Shown here one piece after another: positions 1,001-48,677 of a stretch of DNA of 64,000 nt (positions are counted from its first letter, which is position 1; each line of letters starts with the position of its first letter). Made by a program: the position numbers and the translations under genes. The DNA lies in the IMG/VR virus record IMGVR_UViG_3300020463_000001, positions 1-64,000 of that record. One strand, 5' to 3'. Below the pieces are notes generated by a model. That model searched no databases. It had not been told where the DNA came from and worked only from the letters and a program-made list of their open reading frames with translations. This DNA comes from a virus. Lineage: Duplodnaviria; Caudoviricetes.

Positions 1001-3055
1001 TTAATCCGCGAAGAAGTAAACTTTACCAGCGGAGCTGCTTATACCGTTGTTATCTTCCTGTGCTCCAATAGCGATAGTGGTATCTGTTACTTCTATAGAA
1101 GACCCAAAACCCCCGCCCCACGCTGGATTCCACTCATTTGGTAGATACTGACTTGGGGTAGGGTTCTCTATTGTATTGACCAAGGTTCCGGATCTATCGT
1201 AAACATAAACGACACCTTTCCTTGGTTCGCCGTTCGCACCTTGAGACTTTTGCGTGGCTCCCACAAAGAAGAATTGTTGATCATTAGAAATTCCTACTGA
1301 CCATCCGAATCTCTCTCCGTATTCATATGGTGTAGGAGGCACCAGTCGGGTTACTAAGTTTCCGGTTGAAGTATCCCATACAACAGCAATCCCTACTTGA
1401 CCTACACCACCTTCTTCATAAGAAAATCCTCCACCTATTAGAGTGCTTCCTTTGACTTTAATACTGCCAGGATAGTATGCGAATTGTCCATAAGCAGTTG
1501 AAGTAACTCCAGCTACTGATGTAGGATCGTATGATCTAGTGTATGACGGTGATGTCTTGTCTGTGATATCATATTCCCAAATAATCCCTCTGAATGTATT
1601 ATAAGGCCCCTGACCTATAAACAAAGTATTGTTATCATCACTCAATGCTAGAGAACTTCCGAACTGTATGTCTCCATTCGGACAGTGAATTGCTGAAACT
1701 GGGACAGTAGTGGTATCGTGTATTGAAACCATCCCAGAACCTCCAGCAACGGGAACATCATTAGTCTGACCAGTATGTCCGATAATAAAATAGTTACCAT
1801 CAGAAGTCACTTCTACGCACTGTGCATATCTGTTATCGTTTGGATTGTTCCACCCAGCGATTTTACCATCACCCCAAGACCCATCTGATGCGTTGAATGT
1901 GAATACTGCACCGTCTCCACTATGACCTCCATTATCTAAAAATCTTGCGGCGACTGCGATTTTTCCTCCACCGACTGCAACATCCCATGCGAAAGAAATG
2001 CCACCTTGGTCTCCCCTTCCTGTCGCATTCATACCCATAGGATTATCTATTTCATATAAGAGAGTTCCGGAATGATCATATACATAGACTCTTCCTCTAT
2101 AGGAATATCCCCCCTGATAATGACCATATGCACCCACTACTATATAATTATCATCTGACGCCATACTATATCCGAACGCATGAGAATTACTTTCAGTGCT
2201 AGTACTCGTAACGGTTCCAGAATGTGTTGGACTTGACCAGTCTACCGCAAATGCTAATGTGAAACTTGAAACTGCAGTTGCGACATTCACTGAGTCATTT
2301 GCCGAAAATGTTAATTCGAATGTCGCAGGAAGAACTCCGTGTGGAGTAATTGTAAACACATTATCGTTTTGTGTGACTGTGGTTCCATTCAATGCTCCGT
2401 TGGTCACTGAATGTGAGAATGATACAGGATCATTCTCTGGATCCGTAGCGGTCAGTGTGATGACTGTAGGTGTCCCATCAGTCGCTAAAGTATATGCCGC
2501 ATCGTTTCCTGATACTGTTGGTGCAGTGTTAATTAATGCAACAGCGTACCATCCCTCTGCAGTTTTGATATATAATTTATTATTGGATTGAACAACTGCC
2601 TGATCCCCGGCACTTGCTCCAGCAGGCAAATCACCCACTGTTGCAACAACTTGTAGTGCGGCTGATGTCGGGGTAGTATAAGAAACTACACCATTATCAT
2701 ATGATAAGTCTCCGGTGACACTTATTGCCGGTTGAACACTATTTGCGTTTAGAAATTTTCTAGAACCCTCTACCATTTGATCTGTAGAAGTCATTCCTCC
2801 CAATGCTGGTCTTCTGTCTCTTAATTCATTAATTCCTTCAGAGAGTGATACTAGATCATCTATGGACGCTGCAGGAATTGCAGAGGCCATTTGAGTGTCC
2901 AGTTCTGTTTCTACTTCTGAATCATCTATAAGACCAACAAATCTAGCAGACTTAGCGAGTCTTCCTAGATCTCTTGGAGTTGTACTAATTGCTGCTCGGT
3001 TTCGAATCCGAGACTTCATATTAGTTTTAGCGTTTTCTAAATTAGTATTAGGCAT
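1001..3055 (-). CDS. Fibre/adhesin-like protein: shared N-terminal domain, Ig/cadherin-like domain, C-terminal FG-GAP-type beta-propeller
   Basis: Repeated FGxSxAxxxxxIVVGA ... G.VYVY motifs; APTVSG...VITLTATDPENDPV Ig-like segment. Confidence 0.7.
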   Translation of the reverse strand: MPNTNLENAKTNMKSRIRNRAAISTTPRDLGRLAKSARFVGLIDDSEVETELDTQMASAIPAASIDDLVSLSEGINELRDRRPALGGMTSTDQMVEGSRKFLNANSVQPAISVTGDLSYDNGVVSYTTPTSAALQVVATVGDLPAGASAGDQAVVQSNNKLYIKTAEGWYAVALINTAPTVSGNDAAYTLATDGTPTVITLTATDPENDPVSFSHSVTNGALNGTTVTQNDNVFTITPHGVLPATFELTFSANDSVNVATAVSSFTLAFAVDWSSPTHSGTVTSTSTESNSHAFGYSMASDDNYIVVGAYGHYQGGYSYRGRVYVYDHSGTLLYEIDNPMGMNATGRGDQGGISFAWDVAVGGGKIAVAARFLDNGGHSGDGAVFTFNASDGSWGDGKIAGWNNPNDNRYAQCVEVTSDGNYFIIGHTGQTNDVPVAGGSGMVSIHDTTTVPVSAIHCPNGDIQFGSSLALSDDNNTLFIGQGPYNTFRGIIWEYDITDKTSPSYTRSYDPTSVAGVTSTAYGQFAYYPGSIKVKGSTLIGGGFSYEEGGVGQVGIAVVWDTSTGNLVTRLVPPTPYEYGERFGWSVGISNDQQFFFVGATQKSQGANGEPRKGVVYVYDRSGTLVNTIENPTPSQYLPNEWNPAWGGGFGSSIEVTDTTIAIGAQEDNNGISSSAGKVYFFAD

Positions 3056-3076
3056 TATTGTTTCCTATTTGTATTA

Positions 3077-4426
3077 TTAACCACCAGCAAAAATTGGAAA
3101 TATTGAACTGTTATATCTCGCTGGCCCTCGGTAATCGGGCCCAGTGCCGTACAGTTCGAATTTGAATTTATTAATTCTTACGCCCGTATCTCCATATGCC
3201 CATTGAGGCATTAAATTAGTATTTAATGTATGACCAGCAGTGAAAAGACTTGGAGCTCCGTATTTGTAACCCTCGTAAGTCGGATAAAGTGTAATTACTT
3301 CCCATTGATTGGTATCTACATTAAAAACTGATGTCCGGTTAGTCCCTCCGTAGGGAGTACCTCCACCGCCGCCCGGAGTCCACTGCATACCAGTAACAAA
3401 TCCCAATAATGTCGCAGTTGTTCCCAAATTCACTATTACGCCAGAATTGACTCTAGGATTATATACCATATATCTAATTGCTTTGATGTGATTCTCTTTT
3501 TCGGAGTAGGTCAATGCCCCCCACTCATCAAAACTGGAAATTCCTTCTGCAGCAGTCCAATGATAGTAAGAACTGTATTGGCCGTATTCCAAGTAATGAC
3601 CAGAAAAATCTGGAGCAAAATTTAACGAAAAACTTGATGCACTCGTTGTCGCAACATTCACGGTGTCATCTGCAGAGAATGTTAAATCGAATGTCGCCGG
3701 ATTAGCATTGTGTGGTGTCACAGTGAACACATTGTCATTTTGTGTGACTGTGGTTCCATTAAGATCTCCACTAGATACTGAATGTGAGAATGTTACTGGA
3801 TCGTTCTCTGGATCCGTAGCAGTCAATGTAATAACTGTAGGAGTTTCATCAGTTGCAAGAGTGTATGATGCATCGTTTCCAGATACTGTTGGTGCGGTGT
3901 TAATCAGTGCGACTGCATACCAACCATCAGCGGTTCTAATATATAAGTTATTGTTCGCAGTAACGACTGCTTGTGTCCCTGCAGTTGCGTCTAGTGGTAA
4001 ATCTCCGACTGTTGCAACTACTTGAAGTGCCGCTGCAGTAGGAGCAGTGTATGAAACAACACCACTGTCATACGATAAATCACCAGCGACACTTATTTGT
4101 GGTTGTACATTCGCTGCTTTGAGAAACTTATTGCCACCTTCTGTCAAGTTATCTGTTGTTGCAACCTGACCCATATCTGCAGAACTACCTCTGAGTTCTT
4201 TAATTCCTTCTGACATCTCTACGAGATCATCTACAGTCGCGGCAGGAATCGCTGCGCTCATTTGAGTGTCGATATCTGTTTCTACTTCAGCATCATCTAA
4301 AAGACCAACGAACCTCGCAGACTTCGCAAGTCTACCTAGATCTCTTGGTGTTTGACCAGCTTGGACTCGGTTTCTAATACGAGTCTTCATGTTAGTCTTT
4401 GAGTTTTCTAAATTAGTATTAGGCAT
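3077..4426 (-). CDS. Fibre/adhesin-like paralog with beta-sandwich (discoidin/lectin-like) C-terminus
   Basis: First ~270 aa closely match 1001-3055; C-terminus closely matches 4445-5803. Confidence 0.7.
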   Translation of the reverse strand: MPNTNLENSKTNMKTRIRNRVQAGQTPRDLGRLAKSARFVGLLDDAEVETDIDTQMSAAIPAATVDDLVEMSEGIKELRGSSADMGQVATTDNLTEGGNKFLKAANVQPQISVAGDLSYDSGVVSYTAPTAAALQVVATVGDLPLDATAGTQAVVTANNNLYIRTADGWYAVALINTAPTVSGNDASYTLATDETPTVITLTATDPENDPVTFSHSVSSGDLNGTTVTQNDNVFTVTPHNANPATFDLTFSADDTVNVATTSASSFSLNFAPDFSGHYLEYGQYSSYYHWTAAEGISSFDEWGALTYSEKENHIKAIRYMVYNPRVNSGVIVNLGTTATLLGFVTGMQWTPGGGGGTPYGGTNRTSVFNVDTNQWEVITLYPTYEGYKYGAPSLFTAGHTLNTNLMPQWAYGDTGVRINKFKFELYGTGPDYRGPARYNSSIFPIFAGG

Positions 4427-4444
4427 TATTGTTTCCTATTTAAA

Positions 4445-5803
4445 TTATCCGAATATCGGGAATATTGCTCTTGGACATTGTGCATATGTGTTTGATGGAA
4501 TGGTCGAACTGCTGTGTTTTTCTCTCGCACGAATTCGTATTTTACTAATCCTTACTCCCGTCTCGCCGTATGCCCAAGCGGGATCATTATTTGTTGTACT
4601 ATGACCAGCAGTGAAAAGACTTGGTGCTCCATATTTTACATTGCTGACATTGCTATTTTTTGCAACAGTTTCCCACTGATTTGTATCTACATTAAAAACT
4701 TGTATCCAATCCAGCCCACCAAATGCATTAGAACCATTGTTTGCAGGACTAGTCCAGTTACTTAAAGTGACAAATCCCTTTAATGTGGCAACTGTTCCCA
4801 GATTTACATCTATTCCATTATTGGGCTGAGTACGGGGTTTAATTATCACTGCTCTAATTGCTTTACCAGAATTATTTTTATCTACTATTGCGTCATATTC
4901 ATCAAAACTGGAAACTCCTTCCGCATCATCCCAAAAATAGTAAGAACCGTTGATAGCACTTTCCGCAGAATGTCCAGAGAAATCTGGAGCAAAGCTGATC
5001 GTAAACTCTGAAGGAGTAGTTGTAGATACATTAGTTCCATCTGATGCACTAAATGTTATTGAAAATGGCGCGGTATCTGCCGGATCTGAACTTCCTGTAA
5101 TTGTGAAGACATTATCTGATTGTGCGACAGAAGAACCACCTAAAGCCCCTGCAGTTACTTGGTGACTATATGTGATAGGATCTCCTTGTGGATCAGTAGC
5201 GGACAATGTAATGACTGTCGCCTCGCCAGTTGATAATGCATAAGATCCATCTGGATTTGAATCAAAACTTGGTTTCTGATCAACCAGACCTACGCCAACC
5301 CACGATGCACCAGTAAAGACATAAAGTCTTTTGTTTTCTTCTACTATTCCCTTTGCGCCAGCAGCAACTCCACTTGATGGAAGATCTGCGACTGTTGCGT
5401 AAACCGTTAATGCATCCGGTAGTGCTGTGTAAGATAAGACTCCAGTTCCGGAATTATATGATAAGTCTCCAGATGCACTGAATGAACCTCTGACTCTATC
5501 CTGAGTGACATAAAGGTTACTAGAACCTTCTGCAACCATAGTAGATGTAGGAACGCCAGCACCTTCTGGTGTTCTGAGTTTCTTAACTCCGAATGCAAGT
5601 TTTTCTAAATCTTCTGGTTCTGCCGAGCCTGCAAGTGAAGATACTTTCGTATCTAATGCAGTCTCTAAGTCTGCATCATCGTCAAGATTTGCCTTTTCTA
5701 TTGATCTAGATAACTTGACAATTTTATCTGCAGTATTTGCTGCGTTAATCGCAGCAAGTAGTTTTGTTTTGAGTGTGTTTCTTGAACTGAATGTGTTGCC
5801 CAT
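4445..5803 (-). CDS. Fibre/adhesin-like paralog
   Basis: Same architecture; shares APDFSGH, FNVDTNQWE, KYGAPSLFTAGH and IFPIF with 3077-4426. Confidence 0.7.
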   Translation of the reverse strand: MGNTFSSRNTLKTKLLAAINAANTADKIVKLSRSIEKANLDDDADLETALDTKVSSLAGSAEPEDLEKLAFGVKKLRTPEGAGVPTSTMVAEGSSNLYVTQDRVRGSFSASGDLSYNSGTGVLSYTALPDALTVYATVADLPSSGVAAGAKGIVEENKRLYVFTGASWVGVGLVDQKPSFDSNPDGSYALSTGEATVITLSATDPQGDPITYSHQVTAGALGGSSVAQSDNVFTITGSSDPADTAPFSITFSASDGTNVSTTTPSEFTISFAPDFSGHSAESAINGSYYFWDDAEGVSSFDEYDAIVDKNNSGKAIRAVIIKPRTQPNNGIDVNLGTVATLKGFVTLSNWTSPANNGSNAFGGLDWIQVFNVDTNQWETVAKNSNVSNVKYGAPSLFTAGHSTTNNDPAWAYGETGVRISKIRIRAREKHSSSTIPSNTYAQCPRAIFPIFG

Positions 5804-5846
5804 GTAATCCTCTCTCCGAATTAGTTGGTCTAGGTGTGTTTCGAAA

Positions 5847-5854
5847 TATTTATA
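5847..5854 (-). promoter_or_regulatory. T4-type late promoter TATAAATA for the fibre array
   Basis: Exact consensus about 45 nt upstream of the ATG at 5803. Confidence 0.75.
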
Positions 5855-5892
5855 ATTATAAATTACTTTAGTACAAGAAATAGGAGTATTAA

Positions 5893-6108
5893 ATGCAAAA
5901 AAAATCTAAGATAATTCGCATCTCAGAATTTAATGCAGAAAAACGGAAAGATAAAGAACTTATTTATTATAATGAACAATTATCCAAACTGAATTTACGA
6001 CTATCTATAATTATGTCAGAGATAAAACTGACCAAAGAAATCATTGATATGATAGAAAATGAAAAACTGATGGACTTTGCAAAGAGACTCAATCAAGATA
6101 CTGAATAG
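5893..6108 (+). CDS. Hypothetical coiled-coil protein
   Basis: AGGAG RBS; 71 aa; converges on the cyclase stop. Confidence 0.7.
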   Translation: MQKKSKIIRISEFNAEKRKDKELIYYNEQLSKLNLRLSIIMSEIKLTKEIIDMIENEKLMDFAKRLNQDTE

Positions 6109-7919
6109 ATTCTGATTGGTTCTTCTTTGCCTTTAACCTTTATTGTGCCTATAGATTTCTTATTGTAAGTATCTGGTAGTTGCGAAACTGTGTATTCAGA
6201 CACTATAGTTTTATAATCTATATAATCCCCCCGAGCGGCAGTGGACTCAAGCCGTGCGGCGAGGTTGACTGCATCTCCAATAACCGAATAGTCAAATCTG
6301 GATTCACTGCCCATGTTACCGACAATACAATCACCGGAGTTAATACCAGTACCAACACTAATGTCAGGCAAATTGCGCTCTTTGTAGATTCTTTTAAGTT
6401 CATTTACTTCTTTTTCTATTTCTATTGATGATTTGACTGCAAGTTCCGCATGGTTCTCACACGGCAATGGCGCATTCCAAAAGGCCATTATACAGTCTCC
6501 CATATATTTATCTATCGTTCCACCGTTGTCTAGGATAATGTTGGACATTTTATTTAGAAATTCGTTGACCAACTCCACTAATCCTTCGGGGTCATCATTG
6601 TTTTTATAATGTTCAGATATGGGCGTAAATCCACATATATCCATAAAGAGGAAAGTCATCTCCTTTCTCTCCCCTCCCAGTTTAAGCAACTCTGGATTCT
6701 TCTGTAAAAGTGCAACTTGTCTTGGGTCAAGGTATGTCTCAAATTGTTTCTTAATTTGTTGACGCAACTTAAACTGACGATAGAATTCAATAAACGCAGT
6801 ATGACCAAATATTAGTATTCCTCCTAAGAGTATCATCACTGGACTGAATAACATATAGTGGGCATTGAATAGATACCCAGAACCTATTACGGATCCAGTA
6901 GACAATAAAAGGAACACCATACCACTCAACCACATAGGAGTTTTACGCAATAGAAGGACAAATAAACCTCCCAATAGAACCATTGTAAGCAGTTCTAAGA
7001 ACGCGAAATAGTCTGGTCTAGTAATGACAGTGTTCTTTACAATCGTCTCTATGAGGTTCGCTTGTACCTCATGAGGGAACATTCCACCCACTGGAGTACT
7101 AATAATATTAGAACCAGCGAATGTCGGCCCTATAATAACAATACTACCTTCTGGTATCCATAGATTTCCCAGATCCGATATAGATGCCCTCTGAAACTTA
7201 TTCCAGTAGGAGTTATACACCGCACCGTTGTCTGATGTGGTGATGGGTTTATAGGCAGGAATTCTCACCCATTCTATTCCTGTTTCCGTTGTCTTTATCT
7301 GGAAAGAAATATCTCCCACTGCTACTCTTATAGTTTCTAATGCAAATGATGGAAATATCTCTCCATGAGCTCCGACAATGATTGGAACCTCTCTCACTAC
7401 ACCATCAATAGATGGTTCTGCAGTTAACGCACCAAATCCATTAATGAATTGTGCAAGTTCCGGAATAGGGGTAAGAATCCCTTTGTAATCTTTAACGAAA
7501 TCTATTGCATCTCTGGGGCCTAGTGTAGTTGTCCCGATATGCATTTGTGGTTCGAATTCATAATCATCAATAACCTGTGTCGCAACGACTATCGGTTTCC
7601 TTACAAATGCCTCTGCGAGGAATATATCAGAGTTTCCTCTTCCTCGTTCTGAGAGAAGTACATTGAGTGCGATGAGAGTATTGTCTGGTAGTTTGTTGAT
7701 TTCTTTTGCAAGGACATCACGATCCCATGGCCATCTACCATTCTTCTTTATAGATTTCTCATCTATGTCTAATAGAATAATTTGTTCTGACTTATTCTCT
7801 TCATGGTTTCTCTGGAGTAAGTCAAAGTAGTTTAGTTGTGTTGCTTCTAAGATGTATGGATTGAGAACTTTAACCAGTATACATAATAAAAAAGTAATTC
7901 CAATATGGTATAATTTCAT
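6093..7919 (-). CDS. CHASE2-domain membrane class III adenylate cyclase
   Basis: N-terminal TM; CHASE2 motifs (LLDIDEKSI..GRWPWDR, DGVVREVP, P.GG...HEVQAN); 3 TMs; catalytic FMDICGFT, IDKYMGD, GINSG..IVGNMGS, DYSVIGDAVNLAARLE. Confidence 0.93.
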   Translation of the reverse strand: MKLYHIGITFLLCILVKVLNPYILEATQLNYFDLLQRNHEENKSEQIILLDIDEKSIKKNGRWPWDRDVLAKEINKLPDNTLIALNVLLSERGRGNSDIFLAEAFVRKPIVVATQVIDDYEFEPQMHIGTTTLGPRDAIDFVKDYKGILTPIPELAQFINGFGALTAEPSIDGVVREVPIIVGAHGEIFPSFALETIRVAVGDISFQIKTTETGIEWVRIPAYKPITTSDNGAVYNSYWNKFQRASISDLGNLWIPEGSIVIIGPTFAGSNIISTPVGGMFPHEVQANLIETIVKNTVITRPDYFAFLELLTMVLLGGLFVLLLRKTPMWLSGMVFLLLSTGSVIGSGYLFNAHYMLFSPVMILLGGILIFGHTAFIEFYRQFKLRQQIKKQFETYLDPRQVALLQKNPELLKLGGERKEMTFLFMDICGFTPISEHYKNNDDPEGLVELVNEFLNKMSNIILDNGGTIDKYMGDCIMAFWNAPLPCENHAELAVKSSIEIEKEVNELKRIYKERNLPDISVGTGINSGDCIVGNMGSESRFDYSVIGDAVNLAARLESTAARGDYIDYKTIVSEYTVSQLPDTYNKKSIGTIKVKGKEEPIRIYSVS

Positions 7920-8647
7920 TGCTGTGTTACGCTAATACTACATCCTGCTGCATTTTGACATAACTGAGAGATCGTATATGATTGTGCAGTTGTGCCTTGT
8001 TGTGATAAAGAGAAGTTAGTACCATAAGTACCGTCCAGTGTTACATTCGCAGTATGCGATGCATTTCCTAATTGATCAATACTCGCGGTATTATCTGAGT
8101 TATATACTGTCAAATTGAGAGTCTTGTTACTGTCATCTTTTTGAGATGTCCATATGTCGTTTCCACTACCAGCCATATGGAGATGATATGTATGAGAACC
8201 GCTGCCATTACTCTCTTGATAACCTACGACATCGTTATTATTGCCGTATATCTCATATCTCGCGGTATGCCCTCCACTTCCAACACCATCATATGTAAAT
8301 GAAGTATCATTTTTATCAGTCAGAGACGCTCCTTGTCCGTGTCTTAGTGTGTTGCTGCTTCCTGTTATCTCATTAATATTTATAGTGTTCTGTGAACCCA
8401 CATTTTGTTGATGGAAATGTACATTCCAGTTAGCTCCAGTAAAGTATGAAGATCCTGAGAACATCTTGATTTCATTATTTGAACCAATCTGATCCACATC
8501 AAATGTAAGATTAGTTCCACTCTGAGTAATATCTATTTTATTATCCCCATATGATTTTAATGTGATACACATGAGAAATGAGAATATCAGTAGAGTTCCT
8601 AGAATAGTACCTATACGATCTTTAGTAATCTTGTAATGGAATGCCAT
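7916..8647 (-). CDS. Curlin-like repeat secreted protein
   Basis: Signal peptide then DNKIDITQSG / DQIGSNN / DQLGN repeats (QxGxxN); G/S/N/T-rich; C-terminal Cx5C. Confidence 0.7.
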   Translation of the reverse strand: MAFHYKITKDRIGTILGTLLIFSFLMCITLKSYGDNKIDITQSGTNLTFDVDQIGSNNEIKMFSGSSYFTGANWNVHFHQQNVGSQNTININEITGSSNTLRHGQGASLTDKNDTSFTYDGVGSGGHTARYEIYGNNNDVVGYQESNGSGSHTYHLHMAGSGNDIWTSQKDDSNKTLNLTVYNSDNTASIDQLGNASHTANVTLDGTYGTNFSLSQQGTTAQSYTISQLCQNAAGCSISVTQQ

Positions 8648-9750
8648 TATCCCCCCTGTTGACGAATGGTGATACTGTTTCCGCCATCCCCAAGTTTTAT
8701 AATAGAAGGTCTTTCGTCTGTATAGGTATATATATCAAAATTAGCATCTGATTCAAATTTCAAACTAATGACACCAGTAACTTGACGATAAAACCATACA
8801 GTCCCTGCTGCTTTATCTATGATAGTATTATACTGCGTTTGTGGGTCATAACCTAACATTGTTCCCTCTATGTTTACCCTACCAGTTTTCTTCTTAAGAC
8901 TTAGGGGATCTCGTATATCCAGCACCAACAATAAGTCTTGTAAGAAGTCTACATTGAGAAGATCTATGTCTAGTTCGCTGTATTCGTCCAGAGTTTCGCC
9001 TATGTCCTTGAAGTAGTCTCTTTCCAACTCATTAAACTCTAGGAAGTCTACATCAAGTATATTAGAATCAGAACTATCAGATTGTTCTTCATCTATAGCT
9101 TGTTCTATTTCATCTGGAGGTGATACGATAAACATATTGTCTATCTGGGAGACTGTGATATTTTCTACTTTTACTGGTTGTACGGGCGGACTGGATATAG
9201 TAGACACTGATGTTGCTTCAAATGCCTCGTCTAGGACTACGGTTCCTGCCTCGTTAGTGACTGTTATTTCACCTGAGGCTGCTCCAGTTGCGTCTGGTAG
9301 TAGAATAATAAGAGATCGTCCTAGTTCATCGATAGTAGTAGTGAAGTCAGTTCCCCTGATACCGATAGTGGCAACCGGAGTATTGATTCGTATATTGGAC
9401 TTATTCATCAACGCAAGTTTACCAGAGGCAAACCTCGCGGTTCCCTGTGCAAAGTTGAGAACCATTTTAGACTTGTCTGGATTGGGGTCATAGATGACAG
9501 AATCTATGACCACTTCACTATGTTCTGTAAGACGCAAATTTGACTCATCGAGGAAGGTGATAGCCATACGCCCATTATTAGTCACGGCAACATCATTCAA
9601 CAGAATATCCAGACCGGAAGATACCGATAAGTCAGAGGCAGATCTACTTATAGATGTTTCGCCTGTAAATTCTGTTATGTCGCCAATAGTGAATCCAAAA
9701 CAACAAAGAATACCGCTAGTCGCCAGTATCTTTTTGAACAATCGTAACAT
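8647..9750 (-). CDS. FecR-domain secreted/periplasmic protein
   Basis: T..GRMAITFLDES.LRLTEHSEVVID ... G.ARF.SG ... TPVATIGIRGTDF FecR signature. Confidence 0.85.
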   Translation of the reverse strand: MLRLFKKILATSGILCCFGFTIGDITEFTGETSISRSASDLSVSSGLDILLNDVAVTNNGRMAITFLDESNLRLTEHSEVVIDSVIYDPNPDKSKMVLNFAQGTARFASGKLALMNKSNIRINTPVATIGIRGTDFTTTIDELGRSLIILLPDATGAASGEITVTNEAGTVVLDEAFEATSVSTISSPPVQPVKVENITVSQIDNMFIVSPPDEIEQAIDEEQSDSSDSNILDVDFLEFNELERDYFKDIGETLDEYSELDIDLLNVDFLQDLLLVLDIRDPLSLKKKTGRVNIEGTMLGYDPQTQYNTIIDKAAGTVWFYRQVTGVISLKFESDANFDIYTYTDERPSIIKLGDGGNSITIRQQGG

Positions 9751-10456
9751 TTGCGCTATTTGAGTTCAGTTGTAGATCAATGTAACCCTTACATGATGCG
9801 ATTCCACTACAGGTTCCAGAAGACTGAGTAAAACTACCAGTTCCTCCAGTTCCCGTCCAGTTAACCTTCATGTAATGACCAGTAGAATCTGATTGGACTG
9901 ATGTGAAATCGTTATTTCCGCCAATAACATCCCAATCCCATGTGGCGTTAGCTGAGTTTATATCTACATCAAAATCATTATCATCACCACCAGTGATGTC
10001 TAAATCGAAATTTAGGTTATTTGCTGCTGATGATCCTGCTATATCTAAGTCCATGTCACTATTACTTGATGTAATATCGACATCCATATCCATATCATCC
10101 GCATCGTTGCTGCCTGCTCCGATATTCCAGTCCCAAGTGTTGGTGTTACCTGTCCACTTAAGGTCTATCGTAGACGTATCTAGGATAATTGGCCCGAATA
10201 AGTCGTTGTTGTTACCAACTTGGTCTATATTCATCGTCAATGTGGTAGCGGTAATCAACATATCTGTTGCGACTACTCCACTAGACAATGTACCCCCGAC
10301 TTTGTTTCCGTAACCAAACTGGTCAAACGTAGCAATAAATGTATTACCTGATTGTTGTATCCAGATTTCGTTATCTGTCGCTGCTGCGCCGAACACACTC
10401 GACGGCAATAATATAGCCATAACAAAAAATAACATTTTGTTAAATTTATTAAGCAT
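9716..10456 (-). CDS. Curlin-like repeat secreted protein
   Basis: Signal peptide then DNEIWIQQSG, DQFGYGN, DQVGNNN repeats; D/N/S/T-rich beta-solenoid pattern; C-terminal Cx5C. Confidence 0.7.
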   Translation of the reverse strand: MLNKFNKMLFFVMAILLPSSVFGAAATDNEIWIQQSGNTFIATFDQFGYGNKVGGTLSSGVVATDMLITATTLTMNIDQVGNNNDLFGPIILDTSTIDLKWTGNTNTWDWNIGAGSNDADDMDMDVDITSSNSDMDLDIAGSSAANNLNFDLDITGGDDNDFDVDINSANATWDWDVIGGNNDFTSVQSDSTGHYMKVNWTGTGGTGSFTQSSGTCSGIASCKGYIDLQLNSNSANVTIVQKDTGD

Positions 10457-11354
10457 TGCTTTCTTCCTCTCTGTCGTATTCAGAAGATGGAGTTCTGCCC
10501 TCTATCTTCCAAAATCCCCTGTCGTTACCTTGATATATCATCTCTAAGACTGCTGCTTCTATTGCGGTTCTTGTCGCATAGGTAACACTCTCATTTTCTG
10601 ATACACCATCTTCCAACTCTACCAGTTTGGTGTCCATGTCTATAAATTTGAACACATCAACGCCTCCACCTACTGATAGTATAGTCTTTCGACTTTGTAC
10701 GTTCAACAATACCTCTCCTGTGAGTGTGCTAACTGCCCTTAGACTTATCACTACAGAGTCTCTCCTGTATTGTCTCGTAAATCCTATTCCTAAGTATCTT
10801 GCTCCCTTACCCCCAGTTTCTATGTTGGTATCGTAGCCTATAATACCTCCTTCTATTATCATTCCAGCAAATAGTAATGGTTGTATATTTGCCTTCGGAC
10901 TATCTTCTGACTGATGTTTCTTTCTTGTAGAGAGTATTATCTGTCTTTCTCTCACCAGATGATCTATACCATTTCTCTCTACAACCCGAAACCATCTACC
11001 TTTCCCTGCAGTCTTGAGCGCATCTATTAACATCTCTGTTGCGCCCTGAGTAACCGCTGTCGAGAAAGATGCGACATTATCCTGTCTCTTTCTTTGCCCT
11101 GTCTTGTCTGCGAAGTTATATACTGCGACAATAGGCATTTTCTCTGCTGGAGGCAAGTTCAGAAGCTTCTGATAACTAGGAAGTTTAACAACTTCCGGTT
11201 CCTCCACGCACTCCAGAAAATCCATCTTTCGCCATTCCCCTTCCTGATTCTTGAAGGGGGCCAACTTACACCCCAATCCCTCTTTGGTAAAAAGAGGAAG
11301 ACTAGAACATCCCATCAGAAGAATGGACATTATGAGCAATGCCGCTATCTTCAT
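10449..11354 (-). CDS. csgG: Curli secretion channel CsgG (lipoprotein)
   Basis: Lipobox LLMGC; VAVYNFADKTGQRK, FSTAVTQGA, WFRVVER.G, ERQII, LLFAGMIIEGGIIGYDTN, GGKGARYLGIG. Confidence 0.93.
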   Translation of the reverse strand: MKIAALLIMSILLMGCSSLPLFTKEGLGCKLAPFKNQEGEWRKMDFLECVEEPEVVKLPSYQKLLNLPPAEKMPIVAVYNFADKTGQRKRQDNVASFSTAVTQGATEMLIDALKTAGKGRWFRVVERNGIDHLVRERQIILSTRKKHQSEDSPKANIQPLLFAGMIIEGGIIGYDTNIETGGKGARYLGIGFTRQYRRDSVVISLRAVSTLTGEVLLNVQSRKTILSVGGGVDVFKFIDMDTKLVELEDGVSENESVTYATRTAIEAAVLEMIYQGNDRGFWKIEGRTPSSEYDREEESNA

Positions 11355-11839
11355 TAGAAACCTCCGGTGCCTATAGGTATTTCTATAACAGTTTCTGTCC
11401 CATCATCGTCTACAATTGTCATTCTAATGACTTCGCTTCCATCCTCACTAGTAACCACTTCGTAAGTGACCATATTACCTTCTAGTGCGAATGATCCAAA
11501 CCTAGCACCTTCTTCGTTGTTAAACATATTATCCACTAATTGTTTGGATAATTGTGCGTAGATTCTACTCTCCAAGTTCCTTATAAACTTAGCGAGGGTA
11601 GTATTGTCTGCTTCTCTCTCAGCTGACCTTTGGGCCGACTCTAGAGATTCTTCTATATCTTGTTTTCTACTAAACTGTTGGTTCTCTATCGTAAGATAGT
11701 GTGAACCAGTTCCTCTCCCAGAGAACGATGGAGACTTAAATTGATGTACAATTTCGTCTCCGTGTACTTCCACAGAAATAGGCATTGTCAGAAATCCGAC
11801 AATTAAAACTAATACTACCTTGGATATTGCAGTATCCAT
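11354..11839 (-). CDS. csgF: Curli assembly protein CsgF
   Basis: Signal peptide then EIVHQFKSPSFSG, AENQ-like IENQ, LESRIYAQLSKQL; directly upstream of csgG. Confidence 0.85.
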   Translation of the reverse strand: MDTAISKVVLVLIVGFLTMPISVEVHGDEIVHQFKSPSFSGRGTGSHYLTIENQQFSRKQDIEESLESAQRSAEREADNTTLAKFIRNLESRIYAQLSKQLVDNMFNNEEGARFGSFALEGNMVTYEVVTSEDGSEVIRMTIVDDDGTETVIEIPIGTGGF

Positions 11840-11864: not shown

Positions 11865-12167
11865 TTATTCAGTATCTTTTTCTAATAATTCTAAGGCTCT
11901 TTTTTCTTTTTGATCTCTGATTATCGCTTCTTTCTCACGATACTCTAAGACTACATTTACCTTTTGTTGTAATCGAATAAGGTCTTGATCCATCATTCTA
12001 GTTTGATCAATAACCCTAATCAATGCCTTATGCATTGTTCCTAGTGAGACGTTTATCTTATTATTGATAAACCACCACACATAGTAAACAAAATAACCCA
12101 TTCCTACTGCCATGATTATGGGAAACCCAAAATCAGATACAGCAGTAGACAACATCTTCATATCCAT
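11865..12167 (-). CDS. Small membrane protein (TM plus coiled coil; YvrJ/BhlA-like)
   Basis: DFGFPII.A.GMGYF TM then heptad helix; paralog of 12342-12638. Confidence 0.65.
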   Translation of the reverse strand: MDMKMLSTAVSDFGFPIIMAVGMGYFVYYVWWFINNKINVSLGTMHKALIRVIDQTRMMDQDLIRLQQKVNVVLEYREKEAIIRDQKEKRALELLEKDTE

Positions 12168-12178
12168 AAATCTATCCG

Positions 12179-12319
12179 TTATCTAAATCTTCTATCACCA
12201 CCACTAATCATCAACCTCTTTGTTGCACATTTAGAACAAAGTGTTTTATTCCATATAAAGGCCATTTCTAAGACAGTTCCCTTGAACTTACAATCGTGAC
12301 ATTTAAGTAAATCGCTCAC
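12179..12319 (-). CDS. 46-aa zinc-ribbon protein (MSDLLKCHDCKF...LCSKCATK...)
   Basis: Hand-found; GTG start with AGGAGG RBS; CxxC...CxxC. Confidence 0.7.
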   Translation of the reverse strand: MSDLLKCHDCKFKGTVLEMAFIWNKTLCSKCATKRLMISGGDRRFR

Positions 12320-12666: not shown

Positions 12667-12674
12667 TATTTATA
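12667..12674 (-). promoter_or_regulatory. T4 late promoter TATAAATA for the curli-cyclase operon
   Basis: Exact consensus 28 nt upstream of the ATG at 12638. Confidence 0.75.
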
Positions 12675-48452: not shown

Positions 48453-48677
48453 ATGCTAAAGACTATGACTCAGAAAGAGTTCAGCGAAGAAATTGAAAAG
48501 TATGTAAAAATATCAAGAGAATCTTACATGGATTCCGTTATTATGTATTGTAAAGAGAATGATATGGACTATGAGAATATTAATTCTCTTATGAGTACGG
48601 TACTCAAACAAAAAATACAATTTGAGGCGGAAAACCTCAACATGATGGCAAAAACTGCTAATCAATTACCCCTGTGA
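48453..48677 (+). CDS. 33: gp33 late-transcription co-activator
   Basis: FSEEIE...YMDSVI.YC.EN......L.QKIQFEAENLNM. Confidence 0.9.
   Translation: MLKTMTQKEFSEEIEKYVKISRESYMDSVIMYCKENDMDYENINSLMSTVLKQKIQFEAENLNMMAKTANQLPL

Follow-up and report, generated by a model that had tools for sequence, protein, structure and literature searches.

The stretch of viral DNA analysed here (the window) comprises 64,000 nucleotides (nt), positions 1 to 64,000 of the IMG/VR record IMGVR_UViG_3300020463_000001. It is part of a 200,733-bp viral record with terminal repeats, judged to be complete, and contains T4-like tail genes; the nearest named relatives of this marine virus are the Pelagibacter phage HTVC008M and the Methylophilales phage Melnitz. 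A string of minus-strand genes in the window (Table 1) forms a curli-type operon, which encodes small membrane proteins, CsgF, CsgG, curlin-like proteins and a FecR-domain protein, and which ends with the gene considered here, encoding a receptor adenylate cyclase with a CHASE2 sensor. The operon is tightly packed, with overlapping stops and starts, and the cyclase is its last, translationally coupled gene: the stop codon of curlin-repeat protein 2 overlaps the cyclase start (ATGA). The protein is probably an inner-membrane receptor adenylate cyclase which serves as the signalling arm of an imported curli-type envelope module.

Two Pfam domains were recognised in the 608-residue open reading frame (ORF): CHASE2 (PF05226) over residues 10-318, with an expectation value (E) of 2e-34, and Guanylate_cyc (PF00211) over residues 419-601 (E 7e-20). 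NCBIfam gave no meaningful family for the cyclase. Hydropathy places hydrophobic segments at residues ~5-22, 305-325, ~329-350 and 355-378, the third of which lies under the script's threshold and was read by eye. The predicted layout is that of a standard CHASE2 receptor, with an N-terminal helix, the CHASE2 domain, three further helices and then the output domain; the ~280-residue CHASE2 domain is predicted to be periplasmic and the C-terminal part of the protein cytoplasmic. The initial annotation had treated the cyclase as a stand-alone enzyme. This description does not hold, as residues 1-380, two thirds of the protein, are taken up by the periplasmic sensor and four membrane helices, and the gene ends a curli/FecR operon. 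Between the last helix and the catalytic domain lies a linker of ~38 residues, which is conserved more strongly than any other stretch; in an alignment that begins at residue 389 it is matched to the linker of the Cya2 chimera 6FHT. An AlphaFold2 (AF2) model of the CHASE2 domain reached a predicted local distance difference test score (pLDDT) of 75.6 and a predicted template modelling score (pTM) of 0.79. Foldseek found no match to this model in the PDB at E <= 0.001, and a wide VIA-align search gave a best Z of 6.0, within the tool's noise range, to generic alpha/beta domains (a Mur-ligase C-terminal domain and periplasmic binding proteins). The class of ligand cannot be inferred from these fold searches.

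Class IIIb adenylate cyclases are marked by a Lys together with a Thr or Ser that replaces the Asp of classes IIIa, IIIc and IIId in the classification of Linder and Schultz; a response to bicarbonate or CO2 is not a defining feature of the class. The motifs quoted in the initial annotation were all found in the ORF: FMDICG at residues 425-430 (metal-binding D427), IDKYMGD, which joins the quoted IDKY and MGD, at 469-475 (K471 and metal-binding D475), DYSVIGD at 543-549 (S545) and VNLAAR at 551-556 (N552 and R556). The best solved match of the cyclase domain is P. aeruginosa CyaB (3R5G, E 8e-35), followed among the top matches by Synechocystis Cya2 (2W01) and its adenylate-cyclase chimera 6FHT, Spirulina CyaC (1WC0), bPAC/OaPAC and human soluble adenylate cyclase (sAC). 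All of these top matches belong to class IIIb, while class IIIa and IIIc enzymes score far lower. The metal Asp, Lys, Thr/Ser, Asn and Arg positions of CyaB align with the phage cyclase, in which S545 stands for the Thr of CyaB (DYTIIG) and K471 matches the CyaB Lys; D427 and D475 align with the metal Asp residues of CyaB, Cya2 and CyaC. At the K471 position the native guanylate cyclase Cya2 (2W01) has Glu and the chimera 6FHT has Lys. The sensor modules of CyaB, CyaC, bPAC and human sAC are not CHASE2, unlike that of the phage cyclase.

The six catalytic residues are conserved throughout the family. Among 121 database homologues (~52% identity to the query), D427, K471, N552 and R556 are kept in every sequence and D475 in 120, and the S545 position is Ser in 119 and Thr in two. 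The same six residues are kept in 79 translations from viral loci and in ~75 cellular translations; Ser is also the commonest residue at the S545 position of the cellular CHASE2-cyclase homologues (62 Ser, 11 Thr). Against two 95%-identical relatives the ratio of non-synonymous to synonymous substitution rates (dN/dS) is 0.06 overall, 0.03 in the linker and cyclase and 0.07 in the sensor. Both the six residues and the best solved matches uphold the assignment of the protein as an intact class IIIb-type adenylate cyclase, the agreement being much greater than chance would produce, and very likely the enzyme is active and makes cyclic AMP (cAMP). By analogy with solved relatives, the catalytic domain would work as a homodimer, with D427 and D475 as ligands of two metal ions, K471 and S545 as the pair that selects adenine, and N552 and R556 as stabilisers of the transition state for the conversion of ATP to cAMP and pyrophosphate.

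Upstream of the cyclase, the two bitopic paralogues that precede CsgF matched no Pfam family; they are probably the short 'HK' ('histidine kinase') genes of a published type VIII secretion region (PMC9599517). Curlin-like repeat protein 1 also has no Pfam match. The FecR-domain protein has thousands of homologues. A search of the 200-kb phage genome for the CsgE gate (PF10627) gave no match. The string begins close to a T4-type late-promoter-like octamer, TATAAATA, and a gp33 homologue is encoded at 48456-48662 in the window. Late expression, which the initial annotation had assumed, is plausible on the strength of this exact octamer 29 nt before the operon's first gene and of the gp33 homologue. 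The octamer occurs 12 times in the window against 5.4 expected, and any one site is therefore no more than suggestive. A second exact copy of TATAAATA is found at 8377-8384 on the minus strand, inside the curlin-repeat gene and ~460 nt upstream of the cyclase start, where it may be an internal late promoter or a chance occurrence. In four marine RNA libraries from four studies, parts of the cyclase and of other operon genes are covered by contigs of 150-370 nt that are 90-99% alike, and two of the contigs span the junction between curlin-repeat protein 2 and the cyclase. As such contigs reveal neither strand nor level, and as DNA carry-over is possible, they are not counted as proof of transcription. 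At the other end of the operon, a 71-aa plus-strand ORF with no family match (5893-6108) is convergent with the cyclase and shares the last 16 nt of that gene.

Table 1. Features of the minus-strand curli-type operon and of the cyclase it encodes (positions in the window; aa, amino acids; TM, transmembrane helix).
Feature	Position	Strand	Evidence and remarks
T4-type late-promoter-like TATAAATA	12667..12674	minus	29 nt upstream of the ORF that opens the minus-strand string
Small bitopic membrane protein, 98 aa	12342..12638	minus	Paralogue of the 100-aa ORF 11865-12167 (27% identity, E 7e-8); no Pfam match
46-aa ORF with two Cys pairs, zinc-ribbon-like	12179..12319	minus	Weak HypA-like match (E 0.03); mechanical ORF, putative gene
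Small bitopic membrane protein, 100 aa	11865..12167	minus	Precedes CsgF; kept in 52/52 viral loci
CsgF (type VIII secretion)	11354..11839	minus	Pfam CsgF, E 2e-12
CsgG outer-membrane curli channel	10449..11354	minus	Pfam CsgG, E 6e-53; NCBIfam CsgG, E 4e-52, below equivalog cut-off
Curlin-like repeat protein 1, 246 aa	9716..10456	minus	52/52 viral loci; syntenic gene annotated curlin-associated in HTVC008M and Melnitz
FecR-domain protein, 367 aa	8647..9750	minus	Pfam FecR, E 1e-9; hydrophobic N-terminus, likely exported; 52/52 viral loci
Curlin-repeat protein 2, 243 aa	7916..8647	minus	Pfam Curlin_rpt, E 2e-4; 23/52 viral loci
CHASE2 receptor adenylate cyclase, 608 aa	6093..7919	minus	Single ORF with ATG start; Pfam, solved-structure matches, conservation, dN/dS
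TM1, residues 5-22; TM2-4, residues 304-380, flanking CHASE2	6780-7010 (TM2-4)	minus	Hydropathy
Periplasmic CHASE2 sensor domain, residues 23-303	7011..7853	minus	Pfam CHASE2, hydropathy, AF2 model
Cytoplasmic linker, residues 381-418	6666..6779	minus	Column conservation 0.88; 6FHT alignment
Catalytic domain (class IIIb cyclase), residues 419-601; bears D427, K471, D475, S545, N552, R556	6117..6665	minus	

The cyclase belongs to a large family, with thousands of database clusters, that is under strong selection. Its nearest named homologues, both annotated 'adenylate/guanylyl cyclase' and both aligned along the full length, are those of HTVC008M (AGE60353), 45% identical over 98%, and of Melnitz (QZI94833), 35% identical; both stand in the same gene order, which is also found on a metagenomic phage contig. 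The present protein is only 45-59% identical to most relatives. A relative of the cyclase is present on 213 IMG/VR contigs. In all 52 of the loci with at least 5.5 kb of upstream sequence among these contigs, the cyclase is preceded by the small membrane protein, CsgF, CsgG, the curlin-like protein and FecR. The HTVC008M and Melnitz modules are like the present one in domain architecture, in having the cyclase last after CsgF-CsgG-curlin-FecR-(curlin) and in falling in the same tree clade; they differ in that the present copy sits in a larger (200 kb) phage.

A type VIII secretion (T8SS) region in which FecR and short 'HK' genes accompany an adenylate cyclase has been described in podo- and myo-pelagiphages by Wittmers et al. 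2022 (PMC9599517), who reported that it is distributed globally, that its transcripts are found in metatranscriptomes and that it is of alphaproteobacterial origin. Buchholz et al. 2022 (PMC9004378) discussed the curli genes of Melnitz and did not discuss the cyclase. With homologues annotated in GenBank and discussed in PMC9599517, the basic finding is not new: the protein is the receptor adenylate cyclase already known from the phage curli module, here in a new 200-kb phage. The word CHASE2 does not occur in PMC9599517, in which subclass IIIb is likewise unmentioned and the gene is named AC; the assignment to class IIIb and the recognition of the CHASE2 sensor are added by the present analysis. 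Class III cyclases were also observed elsewhere among phages. More distant genes occur in the phage records CAKLQH020000011.1, CAKLQF020000009.1 and MT838110.1, which comprise Acinetobacter phage MD-2021a ('cyaA', 29% identity in the catalytic part) and a human-faecal phage contig. Phage-borne cyclases are thus not limited to the curli module.

A search of a genome collection gave 591 matching stretches, of which the best 80 were analysed. These are 29-49% identical to the phage cyclase and come mostly from Alphaproteobacteria and SAR86. A tree of 99 rows unites the viral cyclases in one clade (Shimodaira-Hasegawa-like approximate likelihood ratio test, SH-aLRT, 100) together with a cyclase from one bacterial locus (L008) and two from short contigs that are probably mis-binned; the neighbouring group consists of marine Alphaproteobacteria (SH-aLRT 85). 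As the tree comes from a quick search and its branches near L008 are long, the precise position in it is tentative; it agrees with the published alphaproteobacterial origin. Three close homologues (P0002, L006 and L007) were filed under metagenome-assembled genomes (MAGs) of Saprospirales, Rhizobiaceae and Saprospiraceae. They fall inside the viral clade and lie on short contigs or on a 66-kb contig, which makes it probable that these are phage sequences placed in bacterial bins. L008 is a 32-kb contig of a Caulobacteraceae MAG whose flanks are bacterial (a glycosyltransferase, an S9 peptidase and a TonB receptor) and which carries the whole CsgF-CsgG-curlin-FecR-CHASE2 cyclase set at 2962-10054. 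The L008 cyclase is directly followed by a 197-aa membrane protein of the PycTM family (PF18967, E 9e-25) that lacks a cyclic nucleotide monophosphate (cNMP)-binding domain. A PycTM gene beside the cyclase was considered as a general feature and rejected, since it occurs only in L008 and is absent from the other 79 cellular loci.

The cellular loci differ from the viral ones in what surrounds the cyclase. An ORF with a cNMP-binding domain lies within 7 kb of the cyclase in 30 of 52 cellular loci (L006-L085); such receivers never adjoin the cyclase in viral loci. At L027:3025-11536, for example, the cyclase is flanked on one side by a cNMP-binding HlyD fusion and on the other by a 146-aa cNMP-binding protein, beside a C39-peptidase ABC exporter. 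Clusters of this type resemble a cAMP-controlled type I secretion-like cassette and are common among the cellular CHASE2 cyclases of the family. In cells, then, the cyclase family is a source of cAMP with local receivers, often tied to a secretion machine. The L027-type cyclases are the sister group of the viral clade, whose cyclase is likewise tied to an envelope secretion machine; the phages have kept the sensor and the transmitter and not the receivers.

A functional parallel is found in Sinorhizobium meliloti, where the CHASE2 cyclases CyaD1, CyaD2 and CyaK raise cAMP on an external protein signal (PMC13001267). Like the phage protein, these combine a CHASE2 sensor, membrane helices and a class III cyclase, and cyaD1 adjoins the FecR-domain gene smc02177 (PMC5498481), which recalls the FecR gene of the phage operon. 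An Ensifer homologue, L066, is 33% identical to the phage cyclase and also has a FecR neighbour. The S. meliloti system differs in being cellular, in having Clr as its known receiver of the CRP type and NsrA as its outer-membrane partner, and in being without curli genes. Pairing of FecR with CHASE2 has been reported in Burkholderia (PMC5192318) and Campylobacterota (PMC9239204) as well as in S. meliloti. The Campylobacterota cluster comprises a CHASE2 cyclase, a cAMP phosphodiesterase, a FecR-domain protein of the outer membrane as well as a TPR protein, and the Burkholderia BiofilmReg operon pairs a LysM/FecR protein with a CHASE2 histidine kinase. In both, FecR stands beside CHASE2 as in the phage. 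Unlike the phage, neither has curli genes, and their outputs include a phosphodiesterase (Campylobacterota) or a histidine kinase (Burkholderia); a class II phosphodiesterase was not found in the phage genome. Of the 51 loci with full flanks that hold cellular CHASE2 cyclases of the present family, 13 have a FecR-domain gene within 7 kb. A complex prediction for CHASE2 (residues 23-303) and mature FecR (residues 25-367), both with alignments, scored 0.00, which is no evidence either way.

Taken as the signalling arm of the curli-type module, the cyclase would work as follows. CHASE2, perhaps together with the FecR-domain protein, may read a periplasmic or surface cue late in infection; the cyclase would convert the cue into cAMP, which could then be received by a cAMP-binding protein of the host or else by a phage protein that has escaped recognition. 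In phages of the ocean's most abundant bacteria the envelope module is complete, with the cyclase as its only enzymatic signalling part. Were the cyclase active, infection would supply streamlined hosts with cAMP from a source that is coupled to a periplasmic sensor, and aggregation, lysis timing or host metabolism could be affected ocean-wide. Several observations weigh against this reading. We infer the product, activity and regulation of the viral-clade cyclases from their sequences, and the late promoter is no more than a consensus match. Only one cellular homologue among the 51 loci with full flanks stands with curli genes, and 38 of these loci have no FecR neighbour. In S. meliloti the FecR-domain neighbour smc02177 is dispensable for signal perception (PMC5498481), so that a co-sensor role for FecR is only a hypothesis. 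Furthermore, matches to cNMP_binding, GAF_2, PDEase_II and, above the cut-off, PycTM are absent from the 200-kb phage genome, and no cNMP-binding ORF was found in 85 related viral pieces (1.2 Mb).

With no cNMP-binding gene in the phage, the target of cAMP must be a host protein or an unrecognised phage protein; a literature search on cAMP and Crp in Pelagibacter gave nothing useful. The receptor architecture and the contrast between cellular and viral loci in cNMP-binding neighbours sharpen the question of what reads the cAMP. It is possible, if doubtful, that the viral cyclase is a transmitter without a dedicated partner, the phages having retained the sensor (CHASE2 and FecR) and the cyclase, joined to the curli pore, and having left the receivers behind. 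The phage would then equip the cell with a sensor in the envelope or at the surface, the cAMP output being read by a regulator of the host or by a phage protein that has escaped recognition, and the infected cell could react to neighbours, fibres or superinfection, for example by timing lysis.

Other explanations of the cyclase were considered. In the view of the initial annotation, a late flood of cAMP might reprogram CRP-family regulons independently of the sensor, the position in the curli operon being incidental. The intact adenylate-cyclase residues and the late-promoter motif would suit such a takeover, for which host receptors would be the natural target of a phage without a receptor of its own. 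Yet the sensor and membrane part make up two thirds of the protein and are under purifying selection (dN/dS 0.07), and the gene, which overlaps its predecessor, follows CsgF-CsgG-curlin-FecR in 52/52 viral loci. A flood independent of the sensor is unlikely because the sensor is conserved and the operon position fixed. CsgG and CsgF might instead be a repurposed gated channel, with FecR and the CHASE2 cyclase reporting the state of the envelope in order to set off or postpone lysis, not to control the secretion of fibres. For Melnitz, structure models and synteny have been taken to argue that phage CsgGF acts in the manner of a pinholin or secretin (PMC9004378), and the late-promoter motif and the lack of a CsgE gate in the phage point the same way. 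That proposal leaves the cyclase out, however, and no lysis gene was identified in the operon, while the presence and conservation of the two curlin-like cargo genes fit true export of fibres. A lysis-timing role is compatible with the data and is inseparable here from control of fibres; as a separate explanation we regard it as distinctly improbable.

The initial annotation had also proposed interference with cyclic-nucleotide defence. In one form of this idea the cyclase would make another cyclic nucleotide (cGMP, cCMP or cUMP), as or against a Pycsar-like defence signal. PADLOC models of PycC do match the catalytic domain (best E 8e-25), and a PycTM-family gene follows the cyclase in L008, the sole bacterial locus with the full module. 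The PADLOC matches mean no more than that a class III cyclase domain is common to both, and for the solved PycC 7R65 the score is E 6e-4, as against 8e-35 for CyaB. The specificity pair Lys/Ser is that of proven adenylate cyclases, with Glu found in the Cya2 guanylate cyclase and Lys in its adenylate chimera 6FHT. Pycsar systems are recognised by a cyclase beside a cNMP-binding effector fused to a TM or TIR domain, and neither this arrangement nor any PycTM or cNMP-binding effector was found in the phage or related viral loci; PycTM is likewise missing from the remaining cellular loci, as noted above. A product other than cAMP is thus very unlikely, and the defence proposal is not borne out, as the phage has no Pycsar-type effector. 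A further alternative is a catalytically silent scaffold, kept only as a membrane partner of the curli and FecR proteins. Conservation of the six catalytic residues across the clade and the strongest purifying selection in the catalytic part (dN/dS 0.03) make such a scaffold extremely improbable.

The catalytic core also contains a 61-codon ORF in the +1 frame (6218-6403, minus strand), which has a signal-peptide-like start and overlaps the most conserved cyclase motifs. The open stretch of the +1 frame across the GNMGS motif exceeds that of 95% of synonymous-codon shuffles in 62 of 80 viral genes (median 80 codons), in contrast to 8 of 70 cellular genes; the +2 frame gave 0 of 80 in the same test. 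Regional codon bias and sequence kinship could contribute to these statistics. The position of the +1-frame start codon is not conserved. As a weaker possibility, and a lead, the DNA of the catalytic core in the viral clade may in addition specify, in its +1 frame, a small peptide that is exported. Synonymous diversity at conserved residues in the region of this ORF is no lower than in the CHASE2 part; it is 0.77, as against 0.83-0.86 in the adjacent cyclase and linker (p 0.008).

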